Shown piece after piece: positions 13,121-52,826 of a DNA stretch of 64,000 bases (positions are counted from its first letter, which is position 1; the number at the start of each line of letters is the position of its first letter). The translations under genes were made by a program, and so were the position numbers. The notes beneath the pieces were generated by a model, which had not been told where the DNA came from, did not search any database, and saw nothing but the letters and a program-made list of their open reading frames with translations. Origin of the DNA: Microbacterium sp. NPDC077663 (GTDB lineage: Bacteria > Actinomycetota > Actinomycetes > Actinomycetales > Microbacteriaceae); the NCBI RefSeq assembly GCF_044542795.1, contig NZ_JBITVE010000002.1, positions 250,058 through 314,057 on the forward strand. The letters are read 5' to 3'.

Positions 13121-13209
13121 CGTGTGCGGATGCAACAGATCGTGCGCGGCACCCCGGCATCCGCTCGTAAACGACGGCGTGTCGGCCCGGATCTATTGCA
13201 TCCGTGAAC
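13121..13209. repeat. copy C of a roughly 90 bp intergenic repeat element with terminal inverted repeats (MITE/REP-like)
   Basis: GGATGCAACAGATC at the left end is the exact reverse complement of GATCT(A/G)TTGCATCC at the right end. The centre and right end match the copies at 35155-35290 and 52738-52826. It lies between convergent genes. Confidence 0.6.
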
Positions 13210-13211
13210 GG

Positions 13212-14042
13212 TCAGTCGAGGAAGATGTCGGGGAACAGCTCGCTGTCGGGCGTGCCCGGCGTCGCGGCGTAGCCCGAGAAGTCCGTGACGCCGGCCTCGC
13301 GCAGGACGTCCTCGACGATGAGCGCCTGACCGGTGTACTCGCGCGCCGGCTTGCAGAGCACCTCGTACGCGGCATCGGCGTAGACCTCGGGAGTGCGACT
13401 GACCTTCATCATCCGGTCGCCGCCGAGGGCGAACTGCACGGCGGCGGTCGCGATCGTGGTCTGCGGCCAGAGGGTGTTGGCTGCGACGCCGTCCTTCGCA
13501 AACTCCGCGGCCATGCCGAGGGTCGCCATCGTCATGCCGTACTTCGCCAGGGTGTACCCGGTGTGGGCACCGAGCCACTTCGGCGAGAGGTTGAGGGGCG
13601 GCGACAGAGAGAGGATGTGGGGGTTCGCGGCATCCTTCAGCATCGGCAACGCCGCGCGCGACAGCATGAACGTCCCCCGCACGTTGACGTCCTGCATCAG
13701 GTCGTACTTCTTGGCCGCGAGATCGAGCGAGCCCGACAGGTCGATCACCGACGCGTTGTTGACGACGATGTCGATACCGCCGAACTCGCCCTGGGTCTTC
13801 AGCACGGCCTCGGTGATGTCGCCGTCGTCGCGGACGTCGCCGACGATCGGCAGCGCCCGCCCCCCGACCGCGCGGATCTGCTCGGCCGCGGAGTGCACGG
13901 TGCCCTCGAGCTTGGGATGCGGGGTGTCGGTCTTCGCGAGCAGCGCGATGTTCGCGCCGTCCCGCGCGGCGCGCAGGGCGATCGCGAGGCCGATGCCGCG
14001 GCTGCCGCCCGACATGAGGATGGTCTTTCCGGCGAGGGTCAT
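13212..14042 (-). CDS. SDR family NAD(P)-dependent oxidoreductase (HSDL2-like)
   Basis: 276 aa with Rossmann motif SGGSRGIG and the catalytic Tyr/Lys region (YTLAKYG). Confidence 0.8.
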   Translation of the reverse strand: MTLAGKTILMSGGSRGIGLAIALRAARDGANIALLAKTDTPHPKLEGTVHSAAEQIRAVGGRALPIVGDVRDDGDITEAVLKTQGEFGGIDIVVNNASVIDLSGSLDLAAKKYDLMQDVNVRGTFMLSRAALPMLKDAANPHILSLSPPLNLSPKWLGAHTGYTLAKYGMTMATLGMAAEFAKDGVAANTLWPQTTIATAAVQFALGGDRMMKVSRTPEVYADAAYEVLCKPAREYTGQALIVEDVLREAGVTDFSGYAATPGTPDSELFPDIFLD

Positions 14043-14056
14043 GGGGTCTCCAGGGA

Positions 14057-14827
14057 TCAGGATCGACGCGAACGGGATGCCGCGGCGAACGCGGCGACGC
14101 GGGTCTTCGAGTCGTCGGTGTCGAACGCCGCGCCGATCGTGCGGGCCTCGTCGTCGAGGTTCTCGGTGAGGGGCCGGTGGGCACCGGTGCGGACGAGGCG
14201 CTTGGCCTGTCCGAACGCGCCGGTGGCGCCGTCGAGCCAGGCCCGGGCGATCTGCTCGGCCCGGTCGCCGGGCTCATCGACCACCTCGGCCACGAGCCCC
14301 CACTCGAGCGCGGTCGGCGCGTCGATCGTGGTGTCGGTGAGCAGCAACTGCAGCGCGCGTCGCTGACCGACGGCGGCGGGCAGCAGGGTCGAGACACCGA
14401 GGTCGGGCGTCAGCCCGATGTTCGCGTACTTGCTGACGAACACCGCTCGCGGCGACGCCACGACGTAGTCCGCCGTCAGCATCAGGCCGAGCCCGCCACC
14501 GGCGACCGCACCCTGTACCGCCGCGACCATCGGGATGGACGACTCCACGAACGTCCGGATCCCGTCGTGGATCACCCCGGCCATCTCGGTGATCGTGGCG
14601 CCGTTGCCACCGGAGGAAGCCATCTGCACGACGTCGCCGCCGGCGCAGAAGGCCGGGCCCGCGGCATCCAGTACGATCGCGCCGACCGTGCTGTCGCTGG
14701 TCACCTCGTGCGCGAGGTCGCGCCAGCGGGTGCCCATCTCGAAGTCCATCGCGTTGAGGGATGCCGGGCGGTTGAAGGTCAGCCGCGCGAGCGCGCCGTC
14801 GCGCTGCAGCAGGATCGTGTCGCTCAT
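14057..14827 (-). CDS. enoyl-CoA hydratase/isomerase family protein
   Basis: 256 aa crotonase fold with oxyanion-hole region (AFCAGGD, GGGLGL). Confidence 0.8.
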   Translation of the reverse strand: MSDTILLQRDGALARLTFNRPASLNAMDFEMGTRWRDLAHEVTSDSTVGAIVLDAAGPAFCAGGDVVQMASSGGNGATITEMAGVIHDGIRTFVESSIPMVAAVQGAVAGGGLGLMLTADYVVASPRAVFVSKYANIGLTPDLGVSTLLPAAVGQRRALQLLLTDTTIDAPTALEWGLVAEVVDEPGDRAEQIARAWLDGATGAFGQAKRLVRTGAHRPLTENLDDEARTIGAAFDTDDSKTRVAAFAAASRSRRS

Positions 14828-14840
14828 CGGTTCTCCTGGG

Positions 14841-15602
14841 TCATTTGGGGGCCATGCGGATCGAGCCGTCGAGGCGGATCGTCTCGCCGTTGAGGTACCC
14901 GTTCTCGACGATGTGCTGCACCAGGGCGGCGTACTCGTCGGGCCGGCCGAGCCGCGCCGGGTACGGGACCTGCTGACCGAGCGACTCCTGCGCCGCTTCG
15001 GGGAGTCCCGCGAGCATCGGCGTCTCCATGATGCCGGGCGCGATCGTGCAGACCCGGATCGCCGAACGAGCGAGCTCCCGCGCGATCGGCAGGGTCATGG
15101 CGTGCACGCCGCCTTTGCTCGCCGAGTACGCGGGCTGCCCGATCTGGCCGTCGAAGGCCGCGACCGAGGCGGTGTTGACGATGACGCCGCGGTCACCGGA
15201 TGCCGTGGGCTCGGTCGCGGCCATCGCCGCCGCCGCGTGCGCGATGACGGTATAGGTGCCGATGAGGTTGATGCGGACGATGCGCTCAAAGTCGGCGACG
15301 GGGTTCGGCGACCCGTCGCGGGAGAGCACCTTGGCGGGTGGGGCGATGCCGGCGCAGTTGACGGCGACGCGCAATGGTGCGACCGCGGATGCCGCAGCCA
15401 CGGCAGCCTCGACCTGTGCGGCATCCGTCACATCGGCGGCGGCGAACGTGCCGTCGAGCTCGGCAGCGACGTCGGATCCCGCCGAGGTGGGCAGGTCGAC
15501 GACGACGACGTGCGCTCCCTGGGCGGCAAGACGGCGGGCGGTCGCGAGGCCGAGTCCGCTCGCGCCGCCGGTGACGAGGGCCGATGCTCCGGCGATGTCC
15601 AT
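14841..15602 (-). CDS. 3-hydroxyacyl-CoA dehydrogenase type-2-like SDR oxidoreductase
   Basis: Start at the internal ATG ([18 protein letters not shown]) with a strong GAAGGAGAG RBS; YSASK active site. Forms an operon with the two downstream genes. Confidence 0.8.
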
Positions 15603-15711
15603 GCGCTCTCCTTCGAACGGGATCGGGTTCCACCTTATGCGCGACTCGGTGCCACGAGGATGGGGTGCCTCCAGGGTAGCCGTCCGCGGCATCCGACGAC
15701 AGGATGGAGGG

Positions 15712-16437
15712 ATGTCCATCCCCCTGCCAGACGCACCGGTGCCGCCGATCGTGCGTCGCCTCGCGCGTGGCGCGGCACTCGTGCCGGTGTGGGCGAACAA
15801 GCTCGGCGGACAGACGTTCCGCACCGACGACGACAGATTCATCAAGGTCGGTCCGGTGCACCTCGAGACCTCGATGGCGGATGAAGCGGAGCGGATGGCA
15901 TGGGCCGCTCCCTACCTGCGTGTGCCGACGGTGGTCGAACAGGGCGACGACGGCGAGACGGAGTGGCTCGTGACCCGGACGATCGCGGGGCGTTCCGCCG
16001 TCGACCCAGAGTGGGTTGCGCGTCCCGAGACGGCCGTCCGGGCTGTCGGCGAGGGCCTGCGAGCCCTGCACGAGAGCCTGCCGGTGACATCCTGCCCCTT
16101 CGACTGGACGGTGCCGTCGCGGGTCGCGAACGCCGCCGCGCGGGGGGTGATCGTGCCCGACCCGCTGCGCGAGCCGCCCCCGATCGACCGCCTCGTGGTG
16201 TGCCACGGCGACGCGTGCGCCCCGAACACCCTCATCGGCGACGACGGCCGCTGGAGCGGACACGTCGACCTCGGCCAACTGGGCCTCGGCGACCGCTGGG
16301 CGGACATCGCCGTCGCCGCGATGAGCACCGGCTGGAACTACGGGCCCGGCTGGGACGGTCCGCTGCTCGAGGCCTACGGTGTCGAGCCCGACGGGGAGCG
16401 CCTGGCGTACTACCGCGACCTCTGGAACGCGACCTGA
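15712..16437 (+). CDS. aph: APH(3') family aminoglycoside O-phosphotransferase
   Basis: Start at the internal ATG after AGGATGGAGGG. Catalytic loop VVCHGDACAPN and DLGQLGLGDRWADIA closely resemble APH(3')-II (HGDACLPN ... GRLGVADRYQDIA). Confidence 0.8.
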   Translation: MSIPLPDAPVPPIVRRLARGAALVPVWANKLGGQTFRTDDDRFIKVGPVHLETSMADEAERMAWAAPYLRVPTVVEQGDDGETEWLVTRTIAGRSAVDPEWVARPETAVRAVGEGLRALHESLPVTSCPFDWTVPSRVANAAARGVIVPDPLREPPPIDRLVVCHGDACAPNTLIGDDGRWSGHVDLGQLGLGDRWADIAVAAMSTGWNYGPGWDGPLLEAYGVEPDGERLAYYRDLWNAT

Positions 16438-16441
16438 CCGC

Positions 16442-16786
16442 TCAGCGCATCGCGCCGTCGAAGAGCGCCGCCGCCGCCAGGTAGCCGGCGATCACCAGAG
16501 CGGTCGAGACCAGGGGTACCCACGTGAGGTCGCGCCCGGTGCGCCAGGCGACGAGGGCGGCCGCCGACGTGACGGCGACGCTCGCGAGGATCGACGCGCC
16601 GAACAGCATGCCCGCGGCATCCGCTGCCATCCCATCGCAGCCGGGCGTGCAGGCGCCGCCGGCGAAGACGGTGTGAAAGAACCACAGCGCCCCGGTGACC
16701 ACGACGGCGACCACCTGCAGGACGGCGACGGCGAGAACGGCCCCGGCACCGCTCCACCGCAGGCGCCGAGGGACGGTCGTCGTCAT
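16442..16786 (-). CDS. hypothetical small membrane protein
   Basis: 114 aa with 3-4 predicted TM helices. Preferred over the Arg-rich antisense ORF on the plus strand. Confidence 0.45.
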   Translation of the reverse strand: MTTTVPRRLRWSGAGAVLAVAVLQVVAVVVTGALWFFHTVFAGGACTPGCDGMAADAAGMLFGASILASVAVTSAAALVAWRTGRDLTWVPLVSTALVIAGYLAAAALFDGAMR

Positions 16787-16833
16787 GTCGCGGACGCTAG
16801 CAGGAGGATGCCCACGAGGGCCAGGATGGATCC

Positions 16834-17238
16834 GTGGCCGAGCACCCGCTGATGTTCCGCGAGGGCGACCCGTTGCTCGCCTTCGTCCGGCGTCACGCCC
16901 TCGCCCTCCCCGAGGCGAGGGAGAAGGTCAGTCACGGCCGGCCGGCGTTCTTCACCACGAAAGTCTTCGCCTACTTCGGCGGCTCGGTACGCCGTGGTCC
17001 CGGCGTCTTCGAGCGCCATGACGCGGCGGTCATGGTCCTGCCGGATCGAGACGACGAGCCGGCCCTGCGCCAGGACGCGCGGTTCTGGTCGCCGGCCTAC
17101 CTGGGCCCGTCGGGGTGGCTCGGGATCGATCTCGACGAGACCGATGAGACCGAGCTCGCCGAACTGCTCGACGCCTCGTACCGACGGACCGCGCCGGCAC
17201 GCCTCGTGCGCCGCCTCGACGGAGTCGAGGACGCATAG
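16834..17238 (+). CDS. MmcQ/YjbR family DNA-binding protein
   Basis: 134 aa with YjbR-like similarity. GTG start; an alternative ATG lies at 16852. Confidence 0.65.
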   Translation: MAEHPLMFREGDPLLAFVRRHALALPEAREKVSHGRPAFFTTKVFAYFGGSVRRGPGVFERHDAAVMVLPDRDDEPALRQDARFWSPAYLGPSGWLGIDLDETDETELAELLDASYRRTAPARLVRRLDGVEDA

Positions 17239-17247
17239 GCTCGTCCG

Positions 17248-17751
17248 GTGAGCGAACGGACGAGCACCGGGTCCCGCATCCTCGAGGTCGCCTGGGACGA
17301 CCCTCGCGCCGCGGCTCTGCGCGAAGAATTGGATGCCGACCTCGGCGCGCGGTACGACGGGTTCCACGGCGACGAACCCGCCGAGCGCAAGGTGGCGCGC
17401 TCCCGGGCGCTCGCCATGCACCCGGAGGAGATCGTCGCGACCCTCATCACGGCGGACGAGGACGGCACCCCGACAGGTCATGTCATCCTGCGCCGCCTCG
17501 GCACCGAATGGGAGATCAAGCGCCTCGTCGTCACCGCAGCAGCCCGAGGTCGCGGATTGGCGCGGGCGTTGATGACTGCGGCGCTGGACCGGGCGCGCGG
17601 GGGCGGCGCCGATCGGGTCATCCTGCAGACCGGCATCCCGCAGCCGGAGTCCATCGCGCTGTACGAGTCGCTCGGGTTCACCCGCATCCCGGTCTACGAG
17701 CCCTACATCGAGACGATGCCGCGCTCGGTGTGCTTCGCCTACCGGTTCTGA
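17248..17751 (+). CDS. GNAT family N-acetyltransferase
   Basis: 167 aa with acetyl-CoA motif (RGRGLARALMTAAL); GTG start. Confidence 0.75.
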   Translation: MSERTSTGSRILEVAWDDPRAAALREELDADLGARYDGFHGDEPAERKVARSRALAMHPEEIVATLITADEDGTPTGHVILRRLGTEWEIKRLVVTAAARGRGLARALMTAALDRARGGGADRVILQTGIPQPESIALYESLGFTRIPVYEPYIETMPRSVCFAYRF

Positions 17752-17852
17752 CCCCCGCGACGGATGCACGACCGGCGGTGCAGGAGTCGAGTCCCGGCCC
17801 GCCGCACCGCTCAGTAGCCCCCGCGATCGTGCAGACGTCGCGCCAGACCAAC

Positions 17853-17944
17853 GATCAGGCCGGGCCGGCGATCAGGCCAGGCCGGCGATCAGGCCAGGCC
17901 GGCGATCAGGCCAGGCCGGCGATCAGGCCAGGCCGGCGATCAGG
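17853..17944. repeat. 17 bp tandem repeat (GATCAGGCCAGGCCGGC) of about 5.5 units
   Basis: Head-to-tail copies counted directly; the first unit carries one substitution (ccGggccggc). The period is not a multiple of 3. The repeat abuts and includes the ecfT stop codon in the convergent spacer with the GNAT gene. Confidence 0.85.
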
Positions 17945-18728
17945 ACGGGCCAAGGATGAAGTTCCAGGTGCCGGCGGCGACGGCGGCGACCACCGCCACC
18001 GCAGCGATGCCCGCGCCGATCGCGATCAGGGCCCACTCGCGGCCCCCGAACGTCGACGTGCGCGCCCAGGTGCGGCGGCCCGGCGCTCCGAAGCCGCGGG
18101 CCTCCATCGCCGTCGCGAGCTTCGATCCCCGCCGGATCGACAGCACCAGGAGCGCGAAGGCCATCCCCGCGAACCGCCGCAGGCGCCCCCGATCCGCGAC
18201 TCCGCGCGCGCGACGGGCAAGCTCCAGCGATCGCCAATCGTCGATGAACAGGCCGATCATCCGCAGGCCGGCGAGCGCTCCCAGCACGAACCGCGCCGGC
18301 AGCCGGACGATCTGCGCCAGGCCGTCCGCGAGATCGGTCGGATCGACCGTGATGAACAGGACGACCGACGGCAGAGCGACGGCGAGCACGCGGAGCAGCG
18401 TCGCCGCGGCGAGTTCGAGGGAGCCTTCGCTGACGCGGATGAGCAGCCACTCGACGTACACGCGGCCGCCGGCTTCGCCGTACAGCGCGATCGTGACCGC
18501 TGTCAGCGGCGCCGCGATCCACACCGGCCAGGTGCGACGCCAGAACTCCGCCCAGCGGAGGCCTGCGAAGGGGATCAGGAGGCACTCGAGGAGGAGCGCC
18601 ACCGCCGCCGAGACCCAGTCCAGGGTGAACACCAGCGGGATCGCGACGAGACCACTGGCCGCCAGCTTCGCGACCGGGTTGATGCGGGCGACGACGCCGG
18701 TCCGAGCCGGACCGTCCAGGAGCGTCAC
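17940..18728 (-). CDS. ecfT: energy-coupling factor transporter transmembrane protein EcfT (CbiQ family)
   Basis: GTG start at 18728 overlapping the ATPase stop (GTGA). Multi-TM protein with a CbiQ-like C-terminal region. Confidence 0.75.
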   Translation of the reverse strand: MTLLDGPARTGVVARINPVAKLAASGLVAIPLVFTLDWVSAAVALLLECLLIPFAGLRWAEFWRRTWPVWIAAPLTAVTIALYGEAGGRVYVEWLLIRVSEGSLELAAATLLRVLAVALPSVVLFITVDPTDLADGLAQIVRLPARFVLGALAGLRMIGLFIDDWRSLELARRARGVADRGRLRRFAGMAFALLVLSIRRGSKLATAMEARGFGAPGRRTWARTSTFGGREWALIAIGAGIAAVAVVAAVAAGTWNFILGPS

Positions 18729-20179: not shown

Positions 20180-20182
20180 GCG

Positions 20183-20815
20183 TCAGACACGACTGCGCGC
20201 TTCGCGTCCGATGGCGAATCGGTCGAGCGCACCGGTGGCGGCGAGTCCGCGAGCCAGGAACCATGAGAGGGCGCCCGCGATGACCGCGCCCGACAGGACG
20301 GTGGAGACGAGGTAGACACCCGTGAACGCGGCGTCCGCCCCCGCGTACCAGAGGACGAGGTTGTTGATGCCGCCGGCGAGCGCAGCGCCTGCGCCGGCGA
20401 GGATCGCGACCGGAAGGGTGAACCGACGGTACAGGAAGAGGAGCACGATCAGCTCGGCGCCGAGGCCCTGGACGAGTCCCGCCTCGATGGTGAGGAAGCC
20501 GCCCCAGCTGTTGCCCACGAGCGCCGACACGACGGCCGCGAGGGTCTCGGTGTACATCGCGGCGCCGGGCTTGCGGATGATCAGGGCACCGAGCACCCCG
20601 GCGAACAGCCAGGGTCCGTCCAGGAGCCCCTGCAGGCCGGGCAGCAACGGCTCGAGCAGCGTCTTCGGGCCGAGGTAGCCGATGTTCCAGAGCAGGAAGA
20701 TGAGGCCGGACGCGACACCGAGCACGGAGGCCACGACGATGTCGATGACCCGCCAGCGGAAGCGGTTCGGCGATGAGGTGGTCCGGGTCTCGGACGTGGA
20801 CGCGACAGCGTGCAT
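20183..20815 (-). CDS. ykoE: ECF transporter S component (YkoE-like, HMP/thiamine-related)
   Basis: 210 aa multi-TM protein with an IIRKPG-like motif. It sits first in the S-A-T gene order directly downstream of a TPP riboswitch. Confidence 0.7.
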   Translation of the reverse strand: MHAVASTSETRTTSSPNRFRWRVIDIVVASVLGVASGLIFLLWNIGYLGPKTLLEPLLPGLQGLLDGPWLFAGVLGALIIRKPGAAMYTETLAAVVSALVGNSWGGFLTIEAGLVQGLGAELIVLLFLYRRFTLPVAILAGAGAALAGGINNLVLWYAGADAAFTGVYLVSTVLSGAVIAGALSWFLARGLAATGALDRFAIGREARSRV

Positions 20816-20821
20816 TTCGTT

Positions 20822-20912
20822 CTCCTCCCTGCGCCGGCATGATCCGGATCAGGTTCGACGGTCGAAGCGTGGATCGCTTCCTCTCAGCCCGGCTCACCGG
20901 ACTCCCGTGGTT
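20822..20912 (-). promoter_or_regulatory. TPP (THI-box) riboswitch
   Basis: The minus-strand sequence CACGGGAGUCCGGUGAGCCGGGCUGAGAGG...CGAACCUGAUCCGGAUCAUGCCGGCGCAGGGAGGAGAAC matches the THI element core (GCUGAGA ... ACCUGAUCYGGAUAAUGCCAGCGNAGGGA). The RBS GGGAGGAG is embedded at its 3' end. Confidence 0.8.
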
Positions 20913-20956
20913 GTGCGTCGAGTATAGCCACAGGCAGACCGCGCTACCGTGGTCCG

Positions 20957-22342: not shown

Positions 22343-22345
22343 CCC

Positions 22346-23278: not shown

Positions 23279-23279
23279 G

Positions 23280-24341: not shown

Positions 24342-24386
24342 CCGGGCAACGTTACCGGCCCGATCCTCGGCGCGAGCCGTGCGGGA

Positions 24387-33710: not shown

Positions 33711-35144
33711 ATGGCTCCGGACGACAGACGCAGACTCACCCGGATGCCACGACAGGGCGCGATCGTCGCGGTTCTGGCGATCGCGGGGCTCGCGTCGTCG
33801 TTCATGTTCACTCTCGTGGTGCCGATCCAGTCGAAGCTGCCCGAGCTGCTGAACGCGAGCCGCGAGGACACCGCCTGGGTCGTGACGGCGACGCTGCTCG
33901 CTGCGGCCGTCTTCACCCCGATCGCGGGCCGGCTGGGCGACATGTACGGCAAGCGCCGCATCGTCCTCGTGCTCCTGGGGCTGCTGATCCTCGGGTCGGT
34001 GATTGCAGCGCTGTCGCCGGGAATCGGCGGCGTCATCGTCGGGCGCGCCCTGCAGGGAGCCGTGACCGGTGTCGTGCCGCTCGGGATCTCGATCATGCGC
34101 GACGTCCTCCACGAGGACCGGGTGGATGCCGCGATCGCCTTCATGTCGGCGACGCTGGGGGTCGGCGGTGCCGTCGGCATGCCCGTGAGCGCGATCATCA
34201 CCGAGACGAGCGACTGGCACGTCCTGTTCTGGATGGCTGCCGGCCTCGGCGCTGTCGTGTTCGTCCTCGTCGTCCTCGTGGTGCCGCCGAGCGTGCTGCG
34301 CACGGCGGGTCGCTTCGACTTCGCCGGCGCGGCAGGGCTCGCCATCGGCCTCACCGGCGTGCTGCTCGCCGTCTCACGCGGCAACGAGTGGGGCTGGACC
34401 TCGCCCGCGACCCTCGCGCTCGGCATCGGCGGGCTCGTCGTGCTGCTCGCGTGGGGATGGTTCGAGCTCCGCATCCGCGAACCGCTGCTCGACCTGCGCG
34501 TCGCGGCGCGGCCCGCCGTGCTGTTGACCAACCTCGCCTCGGTCGCGATGGGCTTCTCGCTGTTCGGCTCGAACGTGTCGTACCCGCAGATGCTCGAGTT
34601 GCCGGCATCCGTCGGCGGGTTCGGACTCACCCTCTTCCAGGCCAGCCTGATCGTCATGCCCGCCGGCCTCGTGATGATGGTGCTCTCGCCGTTCTCGGGG
34701 CGCCTCGCCCGGACGATCGGACCGCGGGTGCTGCTGATCATGGGCGCGAGCGCCCTCATCGTCGCGTACGGGTATTCACTGCTGTGGGCGTCGGAGGTGT
34801 GGCACATCCTCGTCGCCAACCTCCTCATCGGCGTGGGGATCGGCTTCGGCTACGCCGGGATGCCGATGCTCATCATGCGCTCGGTGCCGCAGAGCGAGAC
34901 GGGCGCCTCGAACGGGCTCAACGCCCTGTTCCGCTCGCTCGGCACCTCGATCGCCGCGGCGGTCGTGGGTGCGGTGCTCGCCGCACTCTCGACGACGCAG
35001 GGCGGCGTCGCGGTGCCGACGCCGGCGGCGTTCCAGGTCTCGTTCGCCCTCGGCCTCGGGGCCGCCGTCATCGCGCTCGGGGTCGCTTTGTTCATCCCGC
35101 AGCAACGCGACCCGCACGAGGCGCATCCGTCGCTCCCGCGCTGA
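33711..35144 (+). CDS. MFS transporter (DHA2/EmrB-like, about 14 TM)
   Basis: 477 aa with MFS motif A (GRLGDMYGKRR). An alternative start lies at 33744 (MPRQGAIVAV). Confidence 0.75.
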   Translation: MAPDDRRRLTRMPRQGAIVAVLAIAGLASSFMFTLVVPIQSKLPELLNASREDTAWVVTATLLAAAVFTPIAGRLGDMYGKRRIVLVLLGLLILGSVIAALSPGIGGVIVGRALQGAVTGVVPLGISIMRDVLHEDRVDAAIAFMSATLGVGGAVGMPVSAIITETSDWHVLFWMAAGLGAVVFVLVVLVVPPSVLRTAGRFDFAGAAGLAIGLTGVLLAVSRGNEWGWTSPATLALGIGGLVVLLAWGWFELRIREPLLDLRVAARPAVLLTNLASVAMGFSLFGSNVSYPQMLELPASVGGFGLTLFQASLIVMPAGLVMMVLSPFSGRLARTIGPRVLLIMGASALIVAYGYSLLWASEVWHILVANLLIGVGIGFGYAGMPMLIMRSVPQSETGASNGLNALFRSLGTSIAAAVVGAVLAALSTTQGGVAVPTPAAFQVSFALGLGAAVIALGVALFIPQQRDPHEAHPSLPR

Positions 35145-35154
35145 CGCGGGTCGG

Positions 35155-35290
35155 GTGTCGCGGCCCGGGCGGCACGCGATGGGCGGGCGTCCCGGGCCGG
35201 GCGTCACGCGATGCAATGGATGCCGGGCGACACGCCGCGGCATCCGCTCTCGCGCCGGGGTGTCGCGGCGGATCTGTTGCATCCGTTGAC
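35155..35290. repeat. copy A of the roughly 90 bp MITE/REP-like repeat, with a partial 5' duplication
   Basis: GTCACGCGATGCAATGGATGCCGGGCG...GGCATCCGCTC...GTGTCGCGGCGGATCTGTTGCATCCGT is nearly identical to 52738-52826. It is preceded by a partial duplicate (GGCACGCGATGGGCGGGCG) and lies between two convergent MFS genes. Confidence 0.6.
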
Positions 35291-35303
35291 GCGGGGGCGC
35301 GGG

Positions 35304-41887: not shown

Positions 41888-41898
41888 GGGTGCCCTTC

Positions 41899-41946: not shown

Positions 41947-41965
41947 CATCACCTAGGATCGGAGA

Positions 41966-42448: not shown

Positions 42449-42458
42449 TCGGCCGGAC

Positions 42459-43262: not shown

Positions 43263-43281
43263 GGTGATCCCAGACGACAGT

Positions 43282-43302
43282 CTGACACCGTGTCAGGGTC
43301 AA
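43282..43302 (-). promoter_or_regulatory. MerR-type promoter: TTGACC followed by the inverted repeat CTGACAC-N-GTGTCAG
   Basis: The minus strand reads TTGACCctgacacggtgtcagactgTCGTCT about 20 nt upstream of the merR start, the same architecture as 36519-36547. It overlaps the 3' end of the LigT gene. Confidence 0.4.
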
Positions 43303-43829
43303 GCCCCGGTCGCGAACTCCCCGAGCTCGGTGACGGTGGCGGATGCCGCATCCCACCGCCGGAGCCCGCGGGCGGTACCAACGATCGGCTCGCCCAGGAG
43401 GGGCAGCGCGCGCTCGAGGTCCGAGACCTTGAGCCGCCGCGCGAGGGTGACGTGCGGCATCCATTCCCCCGGCGCGGTGTGCGGAGCGTCGTCACCGGGG
43501 CCGGCGACCTCGTGCACAGCGGCGTGCAGCGCGAGCAACTCCGCCGACGGCACCACCGACCGCGCGAGCACCCGTCGCTCCCCCGCCCCGAACAGCACCA
43601 CGGCGCCGAGCGTCACGGCGAACGCCGCGGGCAGCGGAACCGATGCCAGCGTCACAGCCTCACGCACGAGCAGCGTCACGTGCGGCGCGTTCGACGGCGA
43701 CGTGTGCGCGGCGAGGCTCGACAGGCCGGCGTCGGCGAGCGCCTGCCACTCCGCGCGCACGGCGCGCTCGGTCGCGGCATCGAATACGAGCTCGATGCTG
43801 ACGACCGGCGCGCCGCGCACCACGGTCAC
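43299..43829 (-). CDS. 2'-5' RNA ligase / 2H phosphoesterase superfamily protein (LigT-like)
   Basis: Two H-x-T-x motifs (HVTLL, HVTLA). No in-frame ATG; GTG start at 43829 overlaps the pepO stop (GTGA). Confidence 0.65.
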   Translation of the reverse strand: MTVVRGAPVVSIELVFDAATERAVRAEWQALADAGLSSLAAHTSPSNAPHVTLLVREAVTLASVPLPAAFAVTLGAVVLFGAGERRVLARSVVPSAELLALHAAVHEVAGPGDDAPHTAPGEWMPHVTLARRLKVSDLERALPLLGEPIVGTARGLRRWDAASATVTELGEFATGA

Positions 43830-45808: not shown

Positions 45809-45842
45809 GCGTCCACCCTATGGGCGCTCTCCGACCACCGGC

Positions 45843-47633
45843 TCATTCCCGGGTGGTCGAGCATTCCTCGGGTGCGGGCTCACCCGCGAAGCGCGCGGCG
45901 GTCCAGTCGATGAGCTCCTCGAGAAGCGGCGACGGGCGCTCCACCACCGCCGCGTGCTCGTACCCGTCGTAGATCCGGTAGTCGACGACCTGACCGGCCA
46001 TGCACATCCTCTCGACGTACGCGGTCTGCGTCGTGACCGGGATGACACTGTCGGCGCCGCCATGGGCGATGAGCAGCGGGGCGTTCTGACGCAGCGGAGC
46101 CGCGTTGGCCCGCAAATGGATGCCGAGGGGTCCGGTGGCCGGCGGCGTCGAGAACAGGCGCGGGTCGCCGCTCATCCCGAGCGCCGCCGCGACCGACACG
46201 ACGATCGCCGGGTCGGACAGGCACCGCTCGGACATCTGTCGCAGCACGGTGTCGGCACCGGGCCGGACGTAGTCGTCGTACGAGACGTCGTCGTAGATCG
46301 ACGAGAACGAGGCGAAGGCGTACGACGCGAAGATGCTGCCTCCGGTCACGCTCGAGATGTTCTGCACGAGCGCGGGCGGGTCACTGGCCGGCGCGAGCGC
46401 GGCGACCCCCTGGACGTACAGCTCGGGCGCGTACTCGCGCGCCATCGCGCCGGCCCACAGCGCGGCGCCGCCGCCCTGCGAGTGCCCCCAGATGACCGTG
46501 CGGGTGCCGAGGTCGGCATCCTGCAGCTCCCGCGCGGCGCGCACCGCGTCGAGCGACGCCGTCGCGCTCGGCGGGCCGATGAGGTACGGATGCGGGCCCT
46601 CGGTGCCCAGGCCGATGTAGTCCGTCGCCACGACCGCCCACCCCTGCCGGATGATCGTCGGCAGGTTGTAGAGCGCCCCCGACCAGAGTCCGCGCGGCTG
46701 CAGCGAGGGTGCGCAGTGCTCGGAGTACCCCGTCGTGCCGTGGTTCCAGTCGATGATCGGCCACTGGCCGTCACCCTCCTTCGGCACGACGACGACGCCG
46801 CTCGCGACGCGCACCTCGCCATCGACACCCGTCGTCGTGTAGAGGATGCGCCACGCCGTCGCCGACACCGGGATGCCGTTCGTGAACGGCTCGGCGCGGA
46901 TGAGGCGCCCGGGCTCCCCCGGCATGTCTCGAGGCGCGGCGTAGAAGTCGTCGACGACGGTGGACCCCTCACGGAGTGGCACGGTCACGAGCGCGGTGCT
47001 CACGGCGAGGGCGACCGAGACGAGCGCGGTGACCGTCCGGCCCCATCGGCGCAGGCGCTGCGGCTGGTGGCGGCGCTCCCGCTCGGTGTCGCGGCGGCGG
47101 CGCACGCGCGTCCACAGGTCGGTGACACCGCTCATGATGAGCCGCGCCCCGAAGACGACCGCGACGACGAGCAGGGTGATGTCGGGCCAGAACAACGCCA
47201 GCACACCGAAGATCACGCCCGAGACCGAGAAAGCGGCATCCGCGATGCGCGCATCGACCGTGCGGCCCTTCGCGAAGACGGCGACGACCCCGAGCGCCCC
47301 CGCGACCAGCAGCAGGACGCCGACGAGGGTCGCCACGACGCGCACCGTCAGTCCGGGCGTCAGCAGGACGACGAGACCGCCGACGAGCCACGCGCCACCG
47401 GTCAGCACGCGCCAGCGCGGCCGGGGGCCCTCCGCGTCGCGACCCGTGAGCTCGGTGACCCCGGTCAGCACCATGCCGCCGCCGATCAGCCACGCGAGCA
47501 CACCCAGCGCGGTCGTCGGCCGGATGACGATGACCACGCCGAGCACCACGGCCGCCGCTGCGACCACCAGGCGCACCCATTCGGGCAGGCGCAGGTAGAA
47601 GCGTCCGAGCGCGAGGCGCTGCCGCAGCCGCAT
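45843..47633 (-). CDS. secretory lipase family alpha/beta hydrolase with N-terminal multi-TM (HdeD/DUF308-like) domain
   Basis: Start at the internal ATG (MRLRQRLALGRF...) after GGAGGAGGG. Five hydrophobic helices, then a lipase domain with GHSQGG. Confidence 0.7.
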   Translation of the reverse strand: MRLRQRLALGRFYLRLPEWVRLVVAAAAVVLGVVIVIRPTTALGVLAWLIGGGMVLTGVTELTGRDAEGPRPRWRVLTGGAWLVGGLVVLLTPGLTVRVVATLVGVLLLVAGALGVVAVFAKGRTVDARIADAAFSVSGVIFGVLALFWPDITLLVVAVVFGARLIMSGVTDLWTRVRRRRDTERERRHQPQRLRRWGRTVTALVSVALAVSTALVTVPLREGSTVVDDFYAAPRDMPGEPGRLIRAEPFTNGIPVSATAWRILYTTTGVDGEVRVASGVVVVPKEGDGQWPIIDWNHGTTGYSEHCAPSLQPRGLWSGALYNLPTIIRQGWAVVATDYIGLGTEGPHPYLIGPPSATASLDAVRAARELQDADLGTRTVIWGHSQGGGAALWAGAMAREYAPELYVQGVAALAPASDPPALVQNISSVTGGSIFASYAFASFSSIYDDVSYDDYVRPGADTVLRQMSERCLSDPAIVVSVAAALGMSGDPRLFSTPPATGPLGIHLRANAAPLRQNAPLLIAHGGADSVIPVTTQTAYVERMCMAGQVVDYRIYDGYEHAAVVERPSPLLEELIDWTAARFAGEPAPEECSTTRE

Positions 47634-47727
47634 CCGGTCCCTCCTCCGTGCATCGGCGTGGATCTTCCACGTTAACCGCGGGTGCGGGATAGAGCCGGGT
47701 GCTCGACAGCGGCCGCATCCGCATGAG

Positions 47728-48744
47728 ATGGCGCCCGCTACAGTGAGCGCCATGGGACGGGCCGGGACGATGCGCGCCGGCGTGCGCGACGTCGCCGCGC
47801 GCGCCGGGGTGTCGACGCAGACCGTCTCACGAGTCATCAACGACAGCCCTAACCTGCGACCCGAAACCCGCGCCCGCGTCGAGGCCGCCATGGCCGAGCT
47901 CGGCTACCGCGTCAACAACGCCGCCCGGGCCCTCGGCACCTCGACGACCCGGACCGTCGGGGTCGTCGCCTCCGACGCGACCCTGTGGGGGCCCGGCGCC
48001 GGCATCGCCGCCCTCGACACGGCGGCTCGTGAGGCGGACCGCTGGTTGGCGACGGCTTACGCGGATGCCGCGGACCCGGCATCCGTCACCGATGCCGCCC
48101 AGCGCCTGCTGTCGCAGGGGGTGGATGCGCTCATCGTCGTGGCGGCGCACACCGCGACCCTGCCGGCACTGCGGGAGGTCGCCGGTGACACCCCGCTCGC
48201 CGCGCTGCACACTGGCGCAGGCGCCGAGCGCCAGCGGAGGGGCGCCGCGCTCGCGATCGACCACCTCGTCGGGCTCGGACACCGCCGCATCGCGCTGCTG
48301 GCGGGGCCTGCGGACTGGCTCGAGGCGACGGCCCGCGACGAGGGCGCCGCCGCAGCGGCGGCGACCGCCGGCATCCGTCCCGCGGCGATCTGGCGGGGGG
48401 ACTGGAGCGCGGCAGCAGGCGCGGCCGTCGCACACGAGGTGGCTGCGGCCGTCCGAAGTTCAGACGGCCCGACCGCCGTCGCCGCGGCGAACGACCAGAT
48501 GGCGCTGGGGCTCATCGCGGGTCTCGTCGCCGCAGGGTTGCGCGTGCCCGAGGACGTCTCGGTGACCGGGTTCGACGACAACGCGGATGCCGCCTTCTAC
48601 ACCCCCGCGCTCACGACGGTGCGTGTCGACACGGCGGGCGAGGCGCGTCGCGTCGTCGCCGAGGCGCTCGGGCTGCCGGCGCCGGGCGAGGTCGCCGAGC
48701 CGGTGCTCATCGCACGCGCGTCGACGGGCGCGCCGCGCGGCTGA
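47728..48744 (+). CDS. araR: LacI family transcriptional regulator (arabinose repressor candidate)
   Basis: HTH (VRDVAARAGVSTQTVSRVIN) and a periplasmic-binding-fold core. A likely alternative start is at 47770 (MRAGVRDVAA...). Sits directly upstream of araDBA. Confidence 0.75.
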   Translation: MAPATVSAMGRAGTMRAGVRDVAARAGVSTQTVSRVINDSPNLRPETRARVEAAMAELGYRVNNAARALGTSTTRTVGVVASDATLWGPGAGIAALDTAAREADRWLATAYADAADPASVTDAAQRLLSQGVDALIVVAAHTATLPALREVAGDTPLAALHTGAGAERQRRGAALAIDHLVGLGHRRIALLAGPADWLEATARDEGAAAAAATAGIRPAAIWRGDWSAAAGAAVAHEVAAAVRSSDGPTAVAAANDQMALGLIAGLVAAGLRVPEDVSVTGFDDNADAAFYTPALTTVRVDTAGEARRVVAEALGLPAPGEVAEPVLIARASTGAPRG

Positions 48745-48790
48745 GTCCGGCGGGGTGCGGCGTCTAGCGGCCTACCGTGGCGAAGCCGCG

Positions 48791-48806
48791 ATGTTACCGA
48801 TAACAT
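48791..48806 (+). promoter_or_regulatory. AraR-type operator (ATGTTACCGATAACAT)
   Basis: 16 bp near-palindrome 8 bp upstream of the araD ATG. It resembles, as I recall it, the corynebacterial LacI-type AraR box ATGTTAGCGCTAACAT. Confidence 0.55.
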
Positions 48807-48813
48807 CGACGAC

Positions 48814-49509
48814 ATGACCGATCTCGATGAGGCGATCGCCGACGTCCGCGCGGACGTCGCCGCCCTGCACGCCGAACTCGTCCGCTACGGCCTCGTCATC
48901 TGGACCGGAGGCAACGTCTCGGGCCGCGTTCCCGGCGCGGACCTCTTCGTCATCAAGCCGTCGGGCGTCTCGTACGACGACCTCGCACCCGAGAATATGA
49001 TCCTCTGCGACCTCGACGGCAACGTCGTGCCCGGCAGTCCGGGCAGCGATCGCGCTCCGTCGAGCGACACCGCCGCGCACGCCTACGTCTACCGGAACAT
49101 GCCCGAGGTCGGCGGCGTCGTGCACACCCACTCCCCCTACGCCGTGGCGTGGGCCGCGCGCGGCGAGGAGATCCCCTGCGTCATCACGGGCATGGCCGAC
49201 GAGTTCGGCGGTCCGATCCCCGTCGGACCGTTCGCGATCATCGGCGACGACTCGATCGGCCGGGGCATCGTCGAGACGCTGCGCGGCCACCGCTCCCGCG
49301 CCGTGCTCATGCAGAACCACGGCCCGTTCACGATCGGCGTCAGCGCGAAGGATGCCGTCAAGGCCGCCGTCATGTGCGAGGACGCCGCTCGCACGGTGCA
49401 CTTCGCCCGCCAGGGCGGTGAGCTGATCCCCATCCCGCAGGACAAGATCGACGCCCTCTACAACCGCTACCAGAACGTGTACGGTCAGAGCACGGACGCC
49501 CGCCGATGA
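48814..49509 (+). CDS. araD: L-ribulose-5-phosphate 4-epimerase
   Basis: 231 aa class II aldolase/adducin fold with metal ligands (HTHSPYAV ... NHGPFT). Confidence 0.85.
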   Translation: MTDLDEAIADVRADVAALHAELVRYGLVIWTGGNVSGRVPGADLFVIKPSGVSYDDLAPENMILCDLDGNVVPGSPGSDRAPSSDTAAHAYVYRNMPEVGGVVHTHSPYAVAWAARGEEIPCVITGMADEFGGPIPVGPFAIIGDDSIGRGIVETLRGHRSRAVLMQNHGPFTIGVSAKDAVKAAVMCEDAARTVHFARQGGELIPIPQDKIDALYNRYQNVYGQSTDARR

Positions 49510-51173
49510 GCGCCATCGCTTCCGGCCGGACATCGCTGGGCATCGAGCTCGGATCGACCCGCATCAAGGCCTGCCTCGTCGACGCGGAGAACCCGACCAC
49601 CGTGCTCGCCGTCGGCAGCCACGAGTGGGAGAACGCGCTCGAAGACGGCGTCTGGACCTACGCCGAGGACGCCATCTGGTCGGGGCTGCAGGCGGCCTAC
49701 GCCGACCTCGTCGCCGACGTCCGTCGCCAGGGCGCAGAGCTTACCGAGCTCGCCGGCATCGGCGTCTCGGCGATGATGCACGGCTACCTCGCCTTCGACG
49801 AGGGCGGCAACCTCCTCGTTCCGTTCCGCACTTGGCGCAACACCTCCACGGGGGCCGCCGCGGCCGAGCTGACCGAGCTGCTCGGCGTCAACATCCCGCT
49901 GCGCTGGTCGATCGCCCATCTGCACCAGGCGATCCTCGACGACGAGGCGCACCTCGCCTCGCTGGCGAAGATCAACACCCTCGCCGGGTGGGTGCATGAG
50001 AAGCTCACCGGACGTTTCGCGCTGGGCGTCGGCGACGCGTCGGGCATGTTCCCCGTCGGCTCGGACGGCCAGTACGACCGCGAGCGCGTGGCCGCGTACG
50101 ACGCGCACGCCACGGGATTCCTCGCGGGCCGCAGCCTCACGGACCTGCTGCCCGAGGTGCTCCCCGCGGGAGCGGACGCCGGGACCCTCAGCGCCGAGGG
50201 CGCCGCCCTCCTCGACCCCACCGGAACGCTCCGGCCGGGTGCCGTGGCGGCCCCCGCCGAGGGCGACGCCGGCACCGGCATGGTCGCCACGAATGCGGTC
50301 TCGCCGCGCACCGGCAACGTCAGCGCCGGCACGAGCATCTTCGCGATGGTCGTCCTCGAGCGCCCGCTCGAGCGGGTGCACACCGAGATCGACCTCGTCA
50401 CCACGCCCGCGGGCGATCCGGTCGCCATGGTCCACTGCAACAACGGCGCGAGCGAGCTGGCGTCGTTCGTGTCGCTGTTCTCGCGGTTCGCCGCGGCATC
50501 CGGTCAGTCGCTGACGAACGATGCCGTCTACGAGACGCTCCTGCGCGAAGCCCTCGAGGGCGCCGCGGATGCCGGCGGCGTGCTCGCGTACAACCACTTG
50601 AGCGGCGAGCCGATCGCCGGCCTCGACGAGGGCCGCCCGCTCGTCGTGCGCACGCCGGACGCGGAGTTCTCGCTCGCGAACGTCATGCGGGCACAGGTCT
50701 ACGGCGTTTTCGCGACGCTGGCGATCGGCATGCAGACCCTCGCTGAGGAGGGTGTCGGGCTCGACCAGATGTTCGCCCACGGCGGGGTGTTCCGCACCGC
50801 GGGGGTCGCGCAGCGCTTCCTTGCCGGAGCCCTCGACGCTCCCGTCACGGTCGGCGACACGGCGGCAGAGGGCGGCGCGTGGGGCATGGCCGTGCTCGCG
50901 GCGTTCGCGGCAGCGCAGCGCGACGTTCCGGGGACGCGGGATGCCACCGGAGCGGCAACCGAGCGACAGGACGCGTCCCCGGAGCTTGCCGCCTACCTCA
51001 CCGACCACGTGTTCGCGGGGGCGGCATCCGTCACCGTGGACCCGGATCCGGCGGACGTCGCCGGGTTCGCCGACTACCTCACCCGCTACCGCGCTGGTCT
51101 CGCCGCCGAGGCCGCCGCCGTCACCGCACTGCCGCTGCGCGGCATCCGCTCATCGAACGAAGGAACAGCATGA
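49506..51173 (+). CDS. araB: ribulokinase (FGGY carbohydrate kinase)
   Basis: 555 aa with an FGGY N-terminal motif ([13 protein letters not shown]); ATGA overlap with araD and araA. Confidence 0.85.
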
Positions 51174-52672
51174 CCCTCTCCACCAGCCTCGAGCAGTACA
51201 CCGTCTGGTTCGTCACCGGCAGCCAGAACCTCTACGGCGAGGAGACGCTGCGCCAGGTCGCCGAGCAGTCGCAGGCCGTCGCCGAGGGCCTCGCCGGTCT
51301 TCCGGTGACCGTCGAGTGGAAGCCCGTCCTGAAGGACTCGGACTCGATCAAGCGACTCGCGCTCGACGCCAACGCGGACGATTCGGTCATCGGCGTCATC
51401 GCCTGGATGCACACCTTCAGCCCCGCCAAGATGTGGATCTCGGGCCTCGACGCACTCCGCAAGCCCCTGCTGCACCTGCACACGCAGGCGAACGTCGAGC
51501 TGCCCTGGAACGACATCGACTTCGACTTCATGAACCTCAACCAGGCCGCCCACGGCGACCGCGAGTTCGGGTACATCCAGACGCGCCTGGGCGTGCCGCG
51601 CAAGACGGTCGTCGGCCACGTCTCGAACCCGGTCGTCGTGCAGCAGATCGAGGATTGGGAGCGCGCCGCCGCGGGCTGGCAGGCCGTGAACACCCTCAAG
51701 CTCGCGCGCTTCGGCGACAACATGCGCTACGTCGCCGTCACCGAGGGCGACAAGACCGAGGCCGAGCTGCAGTTCGGCGTGCAGGTGAACACGTGGGGCG
51801 TGAACGAGTTGGCGGATGCCGTGGCCCAGGCATCCGAGGCGCAGATCGACGCCCTCGTCGAGGAGTACGTCGCCTCCTACGACGTGGCCGACGAGCTGCT
51901 GCCGGGAGCCGAGCGGCACCAGTCGCTGCGCGACGGCGCGGCGATCGAGATCGGGCTGCGCTCGTTCCTCGAAGCAGGCGGCTTCGGAGCGTTCACGACG
52001 TCGTTCGAGGACCTGGGTGCGCTGACGCAGCTGCCCGGTCTCGCCGTGCAGCGCCTGATGGCCGAGGGCTACGGCTTCGGCGCCGAGGGCGACTGGAAGA
52101 CCGCGATCCTCGTCCGCGTCGCGAACGTCATGGGCTCGGGGCTGCCCGGTGGAGCGAGCCTCATGGAGGACTACACGTACGACCTCGTCCCCGGTAACGA
52201 GCGGATCCTCGGCGCCCACATGCTCGAGGTCTCGCCGTCGCTGACGACGTCGAAGCCGCGCCTCGAGGTGCACGAGCTCGGCATCGGCGGCAAGGCCGAC
52301 CCCGTCCGTCTCGTCTTCACGGCGGACGCGGGTCCCGCGCTCGTGGTCGCGATGAGCGACATGCGCGACCGGTTCCGCCTCGTCGCGAACGTCGTCGAGA
52401 ACGTCGACGCCCCCGACCTGCCGAAGCTGCCGGTCGGCCGCGCCGTCTGGAAGCCGTCGCCCGACTTCGCGACCTCGGCATCCTGCTGGCTCGCGGCGGG
52501 CGCCGCACACCACACCGTCATGACGACGGCCGTGTGCATCGAGGTGTTCCGCGACTTCGCCGAGATCGCCGGCACCGAGCTGCTCGTCATCGACGAGGAC
52601 ACGACGGTGCGCGGATTCCAGAAGGAGCTCCGCTGGAACCAGGCGTACTACCGCCTCGCGCGCGGGCTGTAA
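51170..52672 (+). CDS. araA: L-arabinose isomerase
   Basis: Internal ATG after GAAGGAACAGC; 500 aa with AraA-like similarity throughout ([11 protein letters not shown] ... EGDWKTA). Confidence 0.85.
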
Positions 52673-52683
52673 GGGACGTGCGG

Positions 52684-52719
52684 AACGCCCCGGCATCCTT
52701 GCGGCGCCGGGGCGTTTCG
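52684..52719 (+). terminator. terminator hairpin after araA
   Basis: 11 bp perfect stem AACGCCCCGGC / GCCGGGGCGTT 12 nt after the araA stop, followed by TCGCGTG. Confidence 0.5.
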
Positions 52720-52737
52720 CGTGTCGAGTCGTGGCGG

Positions 52738-52826
52738 GTGTCACGCGATGCAATGGATGCCGGGCGGCGCGCCGCTGCATCCCCTCAGGCGTCGGCGTGT
52801 CGCCGCGGATCTGTTGCATCCGTGAG
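52738..52826. repeat. copy B of the roughly 90 bp MITE/REP-like repeat
   Basis: GTGTCACGCGATGCAATGGATGCCGGGCGGCGCGCCGCTGCATCC...GTGTCGCCGCGGATCTGTTGCATCCGTGAGCG is about 85% identical to 35200-35290. It lies between convergent araA and a membrane-protein gene. Confidence 0.6.

Follow-up and report, generated by a model that had tools for sequence, protein, structure and literature searches.

REP sequences and REPINs, which are mobilised by RAYT in Pseudomonas and Enterobacteria, are extragenic repeats whose conserved inverted arms enclose a less conserved spacer and fold into one hairpin of ~90 nt (PMC3116915, PMC3337134). They leave no target-site duplication, are mostly inherited vertically with long persistence at orthologous positions, and occasionally occur as tandem copies. 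All of these properties recur in a palindromic repeat of 90 nt that is present in three copies, A, B and C, in the DNA studied here: a stretch of 64,000 nt from Microbacterium sp. NPDC077663 (contig NZ_JBITVE010000002.1, forward-strand positions 250,058 to 314,057), hereafter the window. Unlike REP sequences and REPINs, the Microbacterium repeat resides in an actinobacterium, lacks a GTAG-type foot, and has arms of ~35 nt with an internal structure that includes an inverted pair of octamers in the 5' half. Genomes with REPINs have tens to hundreds of copies and a single-copy RAYT gene, which encodes a Y1 HUH transposase and is flanked by the repeats. No RAYT gene was identified among the genes beside the Microbacterium copies, and no genome search was made. 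We lean towards regarding the repeat as a lineage-restricted, old, non-autonomous palindromic element of ~90 bp, similar to REPINs or to miniature inverted-repeat transposable elements (MITEs), that belongs to the Microbacterium oleivorans group. The literature yielded no description of the repeat or of its octamer in Microbacterium; the family is apparently undescribed for the genus, and otherwise a fairly ordinary kind of bacterial repeat.

By analogy of properties, not of sequence, the closest actinobacterial analogue of the repeat is the 'Tuberculosis Rho-independent terminator' (TRIT) motif of Mycobacterium (Gardner et al. 2011, PMC3152330). Both are restricted to a genus, conserved in sequence and palindromic, hence forming a bidirectional hairpin; both are repeated in an actinobacterial genome (TRIT many times), lie at gene termini, where they sometimes overlap the stop codon, and have no canonical U-tract. 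For TRIT, too, recognition of the conserved stem by a factor was suspected by the authors of the study (PMC3152330). In contrast to TRIT, the Microbacterium element also occupies tandem and divergent spacers. MITEs and other small palindromic repeats, such as the Correia elements (CREE) of Neisseria, ERIC, RUP and BOX, are likewise short, non-coding and dispersed between genes, have inverted ends, sometimes supply gene ends or stop codons, and lie at indel and synteny breakpoints; the Microbacterium element, however, is palindromic throughout and not only at its ends, and shows no target-site duplication.

Two further systems resemble the repeat in part. Integron attC sites, with R''/R' boxes of consensus RYYYAAC/GTTRRRY, are imperfect hairpins with conserved ends and a variable centre, and some copies of the repeat also bracket strain-variable genes. 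Unlike attC sites, the repeat has a fixed length, is accompanied by neither an integrase nor arrays in the window, and misses the R''/R' consensus by one base on each side. The DNA uptake sequences (DUS) of Neisseria, the uptake signal sequences (USS) of Pasteurellaceae and HIP1 of cyanobacteria resemble the octamer CGGCATCC and not the entire repeat: the octamer occurs 1–3 times per kb on both strands, is accommodated in genes in several frames through codon choice, and forms 3' hairpins as inverted pairs. It is not a palindrome, unlike HIP1, and the 90-nt repeat has family-specific arms beyond it. We know of no link to uptake or competence in Microbacterium.

Anatomy and identification of the repeat

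The anatomy of the repeat was obtained from an alignment of 26 distinct copies from the M. oleivorans group, which also set the core coordinates of the window copies (Table 1). The repeat measures 90 nt in 23 of the 26 copies; of the others, two have 89 nt and one has 91 nt. From the outside inwards, the 5' arm consists of the foot CGTTCRCGG followed by GGATGCAAYRGAT and GCCGGGCGACACGC; the 3' arm mirrors it as GGCGTGTCG..., ATCTRTTGCATCC and CCGYGAACG, and the two arms enclose a variable apex of ~13 nt. Conservation is unevenly distributed along this structure. Column identity is highest in the 12-bp arms GATGCAAYRGAT/ATCYRTTGCATC (0.93–0.96), followed by the inner arms GCCGGGCGACACGC/GGCGTGTCG... 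(0.87–0.90), the GGCATCC motif at the 5' edge of the apex (0.85) and the outer foot CGTTCRCGG/CCGYGAACG (0.75–0.82). The remaining 13 nt of the apex (0.54) are conserved no better than the flanks (0.49–0.53). Two conserved inverted arms (0.87–0.96), a less conserved spacer and a hairpin together reproduce the organisation of a REPIN, and terminal inverted repeats are present as in MITEs. The sequence-only reading had described imperfect terminal inverted repeats; these are real, and form only the outer portion of a palindrome extending over the entire element (arms of 30–37 nt, 73–77% complementary in the window copies).

Because the inverted arms surround a variable apex, a single long hairpin can form from each of the two strands, whether as DNA or as RNA. 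Folding of the plus strand gives one long imperfect hairpin for each window copy, with energies of −49 to −63 kcal/mol and z-scores of −2.3 to −3.9 (copy B: −58.8 kcal/mol, z −2.8; copy C: −63.3 kcal/mol, z −3.9), and the consensus fold agrees; the minus-strand folds of copies B and C are somewhat less stable. Alternatively, GGCATCC can pair with GGATGCC of the 5' arm, which results in an inner hairpin of up to 10 bp. Neither the long hairpin nor the combination of an outer stem with an inner GGATGCCGGG/CCCGGCATCC hairpin exceeds shuffled controls in covariation or in the percentage of paired cells, a test that cannot decide since the sequences of the family are too alike. At pair 22/82 the combinations U-A, U-G and C-G are all seen, and the outer foot alternates between TTC/GAA and TCA/TGA. 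Across the alignment, G.T oppositions on the plus strand (63 cells at 15 positions) outnumber A.C oppositions (23 cells at 9 positions); this excess is largely inherited from a few positions and is thus a mere hint that one strand is the folded one.

The three copies previously noticed in the window are real and lie where they had been placed. The 17-mer GGATCTGTTGCATCCGT, allowing up to 3 mismatches, has 4 matches in the window against 0.11 expected, namely the three copies and the mirror arm of copy A, and occurs nowhere else in it. A covariance model built from 17 copies, with which the whole window was scanned with filters off, recovers exactly three copies at 79–95 bits on the plus strand (A 79.1, B 94.3, C 95.4), with mirror matches of 45–70 bits on the minus strand (69.9 for A); the next-best matches reach at most 20 bits. 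Two such weak matches, at 15143–15236 and 15374–15442 (~20 bits), were rejected as they lie inside an SDR-like coding region. Chance resemblance or segmental duplication, which has nothing in its favour beyond the high G+C of the genome, retains next to no probability and can be considered already refuted: besides the 17-mer count, the flanks of the copies are unrelated, with columns ~50% identical as in the background, and the 26 distinct copies occupy ~18 sites in several genomes. A CRISPR array was also rejected, since the copies are not regularly spaced and number just three over 40 kb.

Pairwise identity of the window copies is 73% for A–B, 80% for A–C and 86% for B–C. Copy A is the most symmetric of the three; its 5' arm reads GGATGCAACAGATCG and lacks the inner GGATGCC. 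Copy B carries the inverted octamer pair (GGATGCCG at 35218–35225, CGGCATCC at 35238–35245) and is preceded by a tandem duplication of its left flank and first bases, for which TRF reports a period of 32, 1.9 copies and a score of 96; GGGTGTCGCGGC is also repeated here, at 35153 and 35258. The partial 5' duplication that had been ascribed to copy A belongs to this copy, and repeat analysis of copy A found no direct repeat. The non-coding status of the repeat holds: no conserved protein covers the copies, and a search of their six-frame peptides against proteins returned nothing at E ≤ 1. Nor does the repeat match any Rfam family at gathering thresholds; at E ≤ 10 it meets just generic long-hairpin microRNA models, at 12–21 bits against thresholds of 47–268. 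Across the window, the single sequence that exceeds an Rfam threshold is a thiamine pyrophosphate (TPP) riboswitch at 20809–20918 on the minus strand (58.9 bits, gathering score 54.3).

Table 1. Coordinates of the repeat copies and adjoining features in the window
Feature	Position	Strand	Description
Copy A	13121–13210	+	90-nt core; almost completely fills the 105-nt spacer between the stops of the HAD and SDR genes
Flanks of copy A	13106 (HAD end); 13212 (SDR stop)	+; −	Cof-type HAD hydrolase gene; SDR gene
Tandem duplication at copy B	35149–35212	+	32-nt unit, two copies, 84–86% identical; left flank and first bases of copy B
Copy B	35202–35291	+	90-nt core; between two convergent MFS transporter genes with stops at 35144 and 35304
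Separate hairpin	52675–52725	+	20-bp, GC-rich, followed by TTTCG; between araA and copy C, outside the repeat
Copy C	52739–52828	+	90-nt core; araA stop at 52672 (+), stop of 183-aa open reading frame (ORF) at 52850 (−)

Distribution and gene contexts

The window comes from a member of the M. oleivorans group: its HAD protein shares 98% identity with that of M. oleivorans and 97% with that of M. gawkjiense. A scan of a genome collection (596 Gb) with the 16-mer GGATCTRTTGCATCCG, a short pattern, produced at least 118 matches, mostly due to chance; the sole relevant locus among the matches listed is a tandem pair of copies in M. gawkjiense (L011). A two-armed pattern recovered 14 copies on 13 metagenome contigs, and the covariance model added further copies on the same contigs. 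Proteins of four of these contigs fall into 90%-identity clusters of M. oleivorans-group proteins. In sum, the 26 distinct copies correspond to ~18 distinct sites in the M. oleivorans group after merging orthologous contigs, so that the family occurs at many sites in related Microbacterium and does not represent a segmental duplication. The two-armed pattern has no match among viral contigs, and the plasmid and phage collections yielded no copy. Nor was a copy found in the 64 kb around araA in the more distant genomes of Microbacterium sp. 2P01SA-2, Microbacterium sp. cf332 and M. invictum, or in the 62 kb around site A in M. dauci, another Microbacterium sp. (L141) and M. invictum.

All copies are extragenic save for overlaps with stop codons, and most lie in convergent spacers. 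The earlier description of the copies as confined to convergent gene pairs is correct for the window; elsewhere the repeat also occupies tandem spacers and, in one case (L120:510), a spacer between divergent genes. Three copies between co-directional genes point the same way as the genes (L123:3931, L125:8592 and L125:10611), and one between two minus-strand genes points the opposite way (L122:715, equal to L130:1535). The window copies and most others are located 0–70 nt from stop codons, some overlapping them. Several minus-strand genes run into the 3' arm, where a CTATT variant supplies a TAG stop, resulting in tails of the form ...RSRMQ*. Neighbouring independent copies on one contig have the same orientation in 7 of 8 cases regardless of gene direction (one-sided binomial ~0.04 on our own count). 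The window copies are spaced 17–22 kb apart, at a density of 3 per 64 kb, and the GC skew of the window is uninformative on the direction of replication.

Searches for the hallmarks of transposition, termination and transcription around the copies were negative. No target-site duplication was found in 20 copies, only matches of up to 4 nt at varying offsets, and no full-length insertion sequence with matching ends was present in the plasmid, phage and viral collections or in the loci examined, clade chromosomes not being searched. The genes examined beside or between copies encode GNAT proteins, a P-loop kinase-like ORF, a DUF559-like ORF, an aminodeoxychorismate (ADC) lyase, an adhesin-like protein and a small membrane protein, and include no transposase. 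Of the proposed MITE- or REP-like nature of the element, a dispersed, non-coding, palindromic intergenic family is supported, whereas a strict MITE is not, as target-site duplications and a known parent transposase are missing. Neither strand has a T run, the DNA form of a U-tract, at copies A, B or C, and none of the three has a sigma-70-like promoter. A bidirectional terminator as originally suggested is not supported: the U-tract is missing, and copy C comes directly after another hairpin, which has a short T run; the suggestion of a small RNA is unsupported, with no promoter match and no Rfam family. The separate hairpin folds at −41 kcal/mol (z −4.1) and fails the 5-T terminator criterion; its presence ahead of copy C means that araA has its own 3' hairpin. 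The 183-aa ORF on the other side of copy C has no Pfam match, and an exact database look-up did not find it on record, probably on account of the choice of start codon.

Other convergent spacers of the window contain strong hairpins of their own, each unique and without a U-tract. One 188-nt convergent spacer, by rough gene calls, includes a tandem repeat at 17852–17944 with a 17-nt unit, CGATCAGGCCAGGCCGG, in 5.5 copies with 98% matches; its period is not a multiple of three.

Gene content changes between some of the copies. A 4.7-kb segment of the metagenome contig L123 (4034–8755), positioned exactly between two copies in direct orientation, encodes a surface adhesin-like protein of 1534 aa with 11 CarboxypepD_reg/SdrD_B-type repeats; in M. 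gawkjiense (L011 2159–2175) the copies that bracket it are adjacent, 17 nt apart, with the left flank 97% and the right flank 89% identical. The related contigs L120 (510–1214) and L121 (607–1350) have in common the left GNAT gene and the first copy, which is followed by a second GNAT gene in one and by the P-loop kinase-like ORF in the other; their right flanks differ, so that synteny breaks at the repeat. Between two copies in L125 (~8760–9590) lies an ORF that, judging from its translation by eye, resembles a DUF559/Vsr-like endonuclease domain; it looks degraded and has no clear start.

Arrangements such as those in L123 and M. gawkjiense, or in L120 and L121, would be expected if the copies were attC-like recombination sites that bound mobile gene cassettes, each made up of a gene and a single hairpin site, and that a site-specific recombinase uses, as folded single strands, to exchange the cassettes. 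The conserved ends, the cassette-specific variable centre, the strand asymmetry of the imperfect hairpin, and the arms ATGCAAC...GTTGCAT, which agree with the R''/R' consensus at 6 of 7 positions, are compatible with the same explanation. We nevertheless consider it highly improbable. The window copies are widely spaced among ordinary convergent chromosomal genes, and neither arrays of co-oriented cassettes, nor complete boxes, nor a neighbouring intI were found; no integrase stands beside any array among the genes examined, and the length is fixed at 90 nt, unlike that of attC sites. Dispersed repeats that undergo ordinary recombination or deletion can account for the indels, as can the nature of intergenic spacers as indel hot spots, and genomes that lack the repeat also differ in gene content at sites A and C.

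Persistence, loss and probable origin

Comparison of orthologous sites reveals both the age of the window copies and their loss. The window, L137, L138 (MM2322) and L139 (M. marinum) all have the 90-nt element at site A, the spacer between the HAD and SDR genes. In M. gawkjiense (L136) the site is a 50-nt spacer that keeps CGTTCACGGCCGTG and reads like two hairpin feet joined, a possible foot remnant; since the family is present at another place in the M. gawkjiense genome, this state represents loss at the site and not absence of the family. L141 has a 12-nt spacer and no element, M. dauci (L140) has another gene downstream of HAD and a 30-nt spacer with a short octamer-pair hairpin, and M. 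invictum (L142) has an unrelated palindromic repeat of ~100 nt. The latter (L142 10856–10960) contains internal direct repeats (GCCGAGCCGCATA twice and TATGCGGCTCG twice) and folds at −84 kcal/mol (z −6.4); different hairpin repeats occupy one niche, the HAD/SDR spacer, in different species. Site B is also filled in L126, on a contig with 86% DNA identity, and site C in L119 (79%).

The copies evolve at or somewhat below the synonymous rate, as follows from a comparison of element identity between orthologs with the identity of third codon positions of flanking genes: 0.80, 0.81 and 0.73 against 0.69–0.79 for three orthologs at site A, 0.85 against 0.70 at site B, and 0.84 against 0.89 (araA) and 0.55 (183-aa ORF) at site C. 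Their capacity to fold has diverged among the orthologs of site A. The hairpin of L138 is near-perfect (−74.6 kcal/mol, z −6.8) and differs from the window in one pair of which both bases have changed, from A-T to G-C, that of L139 is good (z −2.8), and in L137 the fold is lost (z −0.3). Around site C, an aldose 1-epimerase gene separates araA from the convergent 181-aa gene in three more distant Microbacterium genomes (L132 11504–12513, L133 and L134); the window (52673–52849) and L119 are without this gene and have a hairpin and repeat copy C there instead.

An affinity with REPINs and REP sequences, or more loosely with MITEs, is suggested by the many sites, the fixed length, the conserved inverted arms with a free apex and the varied intergenic contexts, and also by the lack of target-site duplications, the tandem duplicates, the loss or decay in some lineages and the restriction to one clade. 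The family would have been copied into intergenic spacers of an ancestor; as neighbouring copies are co-oriented and target-site duplications are absent, we infer that a single-strand route of the HUH/Y1 or REP-like type fits better than a DDE transposase. Copies would have survived mostly where insertion is harmless, in the 3' spacers of convergent genes, and would later have been inherited vertically with occasional tandem duplication, deletion or decay. In the window's genome, we think, the repeat is now largely a vertically inherited relic.

Several observations weigh against this scenario. No transposase or parent element was found, and no genome-wide search was made. No clean insertion polymorphism was seen between near-identical strains, so that mobility follows from dispersal and was not observed directly, and all three window copies are old, with orthologs of B and C at 86% and 79% DNA identity. 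The excess of element over synonymous identity at site B and the near-invariant 12-bp arms point to a sequence-specific constraint, unlike a decaying relic; the near-perfect hairpin of L138 with its two-sided change runs in the same direction, and the excess of G.T over A.C oppositions on the plus strand hints at selection on one folded strand.

Several of these observations favour the main alternative, which we consider possible and rather unlikely and in which the repeat is a selected hairpin at the 3' ends of RNAs, the Microbacterium counterpart of mycobacterial TRIT. The hairpin would end, block or stabilise converging transcripts, a cellular factor would recognise its conserved double-stranded arms, and repetition would be secondary. 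The proximity of most copies to stop codons, in which TRIT is alike (PMC3152330), the unique hairpins without U-tracts in the window's other convergent spacers, and the almost invariant arms around an apex free to vary are all consistent with such a role, as are the conservation of the site B element above synonymous sites, the two-sided change in L138, the variants of pair 22/82, the foot switch from TTC/GAA to TCA/TGA and the excess of G.U oppositions on one strand. However, the repeat has no U-tract, which mycobacterial RNA polymerase needs in vitro according to one report (PMC3993855), and neither covariation nor the share of paired cells rises above shuffled controls. The copies between divergent genes or antisense to both neighbours (L120:510, L122:715) and the position of copy C after an independent hairpin also speak against this role, and the element was lost in M. 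gawkjiense, is absent in L141 and has decayed in L137, with the gene pair intact.

An old mobile palindrome and a 3' hairpin are not mutually exclusive, because a palindrome is tolerable where it acts as a harmless or mildly useful 3' hairpin. Any transcript that extends beyond a flanking gene would have a very stable hairpin at its end, which makes a secondary role of the REPIN-like repeat as a 3'-end barrier or stabiliser plausible but unproven.

An over-represented octamer shared with the repeat

The octamer CGGCATCC/GGATGCCG, present in the repeat as an inverted pair, is more frequent in the window than any other 8-mer, with 100 copies evenly divided between the strands (49 on the plus and 51 on the minus strand). 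Within the 43 genes that were called with confidence there are 64 occurrences, whereas shuffling of synonymous codons within genes yields 12.2 ± 2.9 (maximum 19), a ~5-fold excess; other very common octamers are at most about two-fold above this null. It is found in three frame/strand classes and accounts for 28 of the 145 rare GAT codons. Octamer density amounts to 1.0–2.9 per kb in named Microbacterium loci and most metagenome contigs and up to 4.8 per kb in two short repeat-rich metagenome contigs. Lower values are seen in Microbacterium sp. 2P01SA-2 and cf332 (0.6–0.9), an Agromyces locus (0.42) and metagenome contig L131 (0.12), and 212 kb of unrelated high-GC genomes give 0.19 per kb; the octamer was also examined in L011 and L134–L142. 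At orthologous positions in close relatives it is kept in 17 of 24 cases, compared with ~43–50% for other frequent octamers.

Close pairs of the octamer are inverted in 10 of 10 cases; examples of the octamer in the window lie at 9247–9285, 15387–15427 and 48063–48085. The first of these is a perfect 16-bp hairpin, GGATGCCGGGCGYCCCC...GGGGCGCCCGGCATCC, a few bases past a stop codon, and the start of its stem is common to the 5' inner arm of the 90-nt repeat. Owing to the absence of strand skew the octamer is not Chi-like, nor does it resemble the FtsK-orienting polar sequences (KOPS); by analogy, it recalls uptake sequences or HIP1 in abundance and behaviour.

These properties raise the question of whether the repeat is a packaged form of a DNA-level protein-binding module around the octamer, which might be uptake-signal-like, nucleoid-associated or linked to methylation or repair. 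Most of the 26 copies do contain one inverted octamer pair, with GGATGCCG in columns 24–31 and CGGCATCC in columns 41–48, and stand-alone octamer-pair hairpins follow stop codons in the window and in L140 (10855–10879). The enrichment in genes, the density in most Microbacterium loci relative to other high-GC genomes and the inversion of all close pairs would also be expected of a binding module. By contrast, the best-conserved and family-specific parts of the repeat are its outer arms (GGATGCAA.../...TTGCATCC), which are rare elsewhere in the window, and not the octamer. In copy A and the L127/L131 subfamily, one or both octamers are missing, and the octamer is abundant in M. invictum too, where the examined loci showed no 90-nt repeat. 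Nor do we know of a binding protein, competence system or methylase that would go with it. We therefore regard the binding module as a very unlikely account of the repeat. A broader conjecture, in our opinion quite unlikely as well, joins the repeat and the octamer into one unrecognised Microbacterium-wide signal system at the DNA level. The octamer would be accommodated through synonymous codons, its inverted pairs would serve as 3' hairpins, the 90-nt element would be the mobile or cassette-bounding form, and the signal would be read by a machinery such as that of DNA uptake, repair or methylation, or by a recombinase acting on single strands.

As a REPIN- or MITE-like family, the repeat adds an actinobacterial, genus-restricted member to the small palindromic intergenic repeats and is of modest interest in itself. 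It has some practical use: several spurious ORFs and the ...RSRMQ* gene tails stem from the repeat, which matters for annotation, and the copies are useful as strain-typing markers and as landmarks of indel hot spots in genomes of the M. oleivorans group. The family also offers a second test case, beside TRIT, of whether sequence-conserved hairpins without a U-tract end or protect transcripts in high-GC Gram-positives. A mobilising enzyme, if found, would extend REPIN-like replicators beyond Proteobacteria. The octamer excess, which is independent of codon usage and ~five-fold across Microbacterium, may merit a study of its own more than the repeat does.

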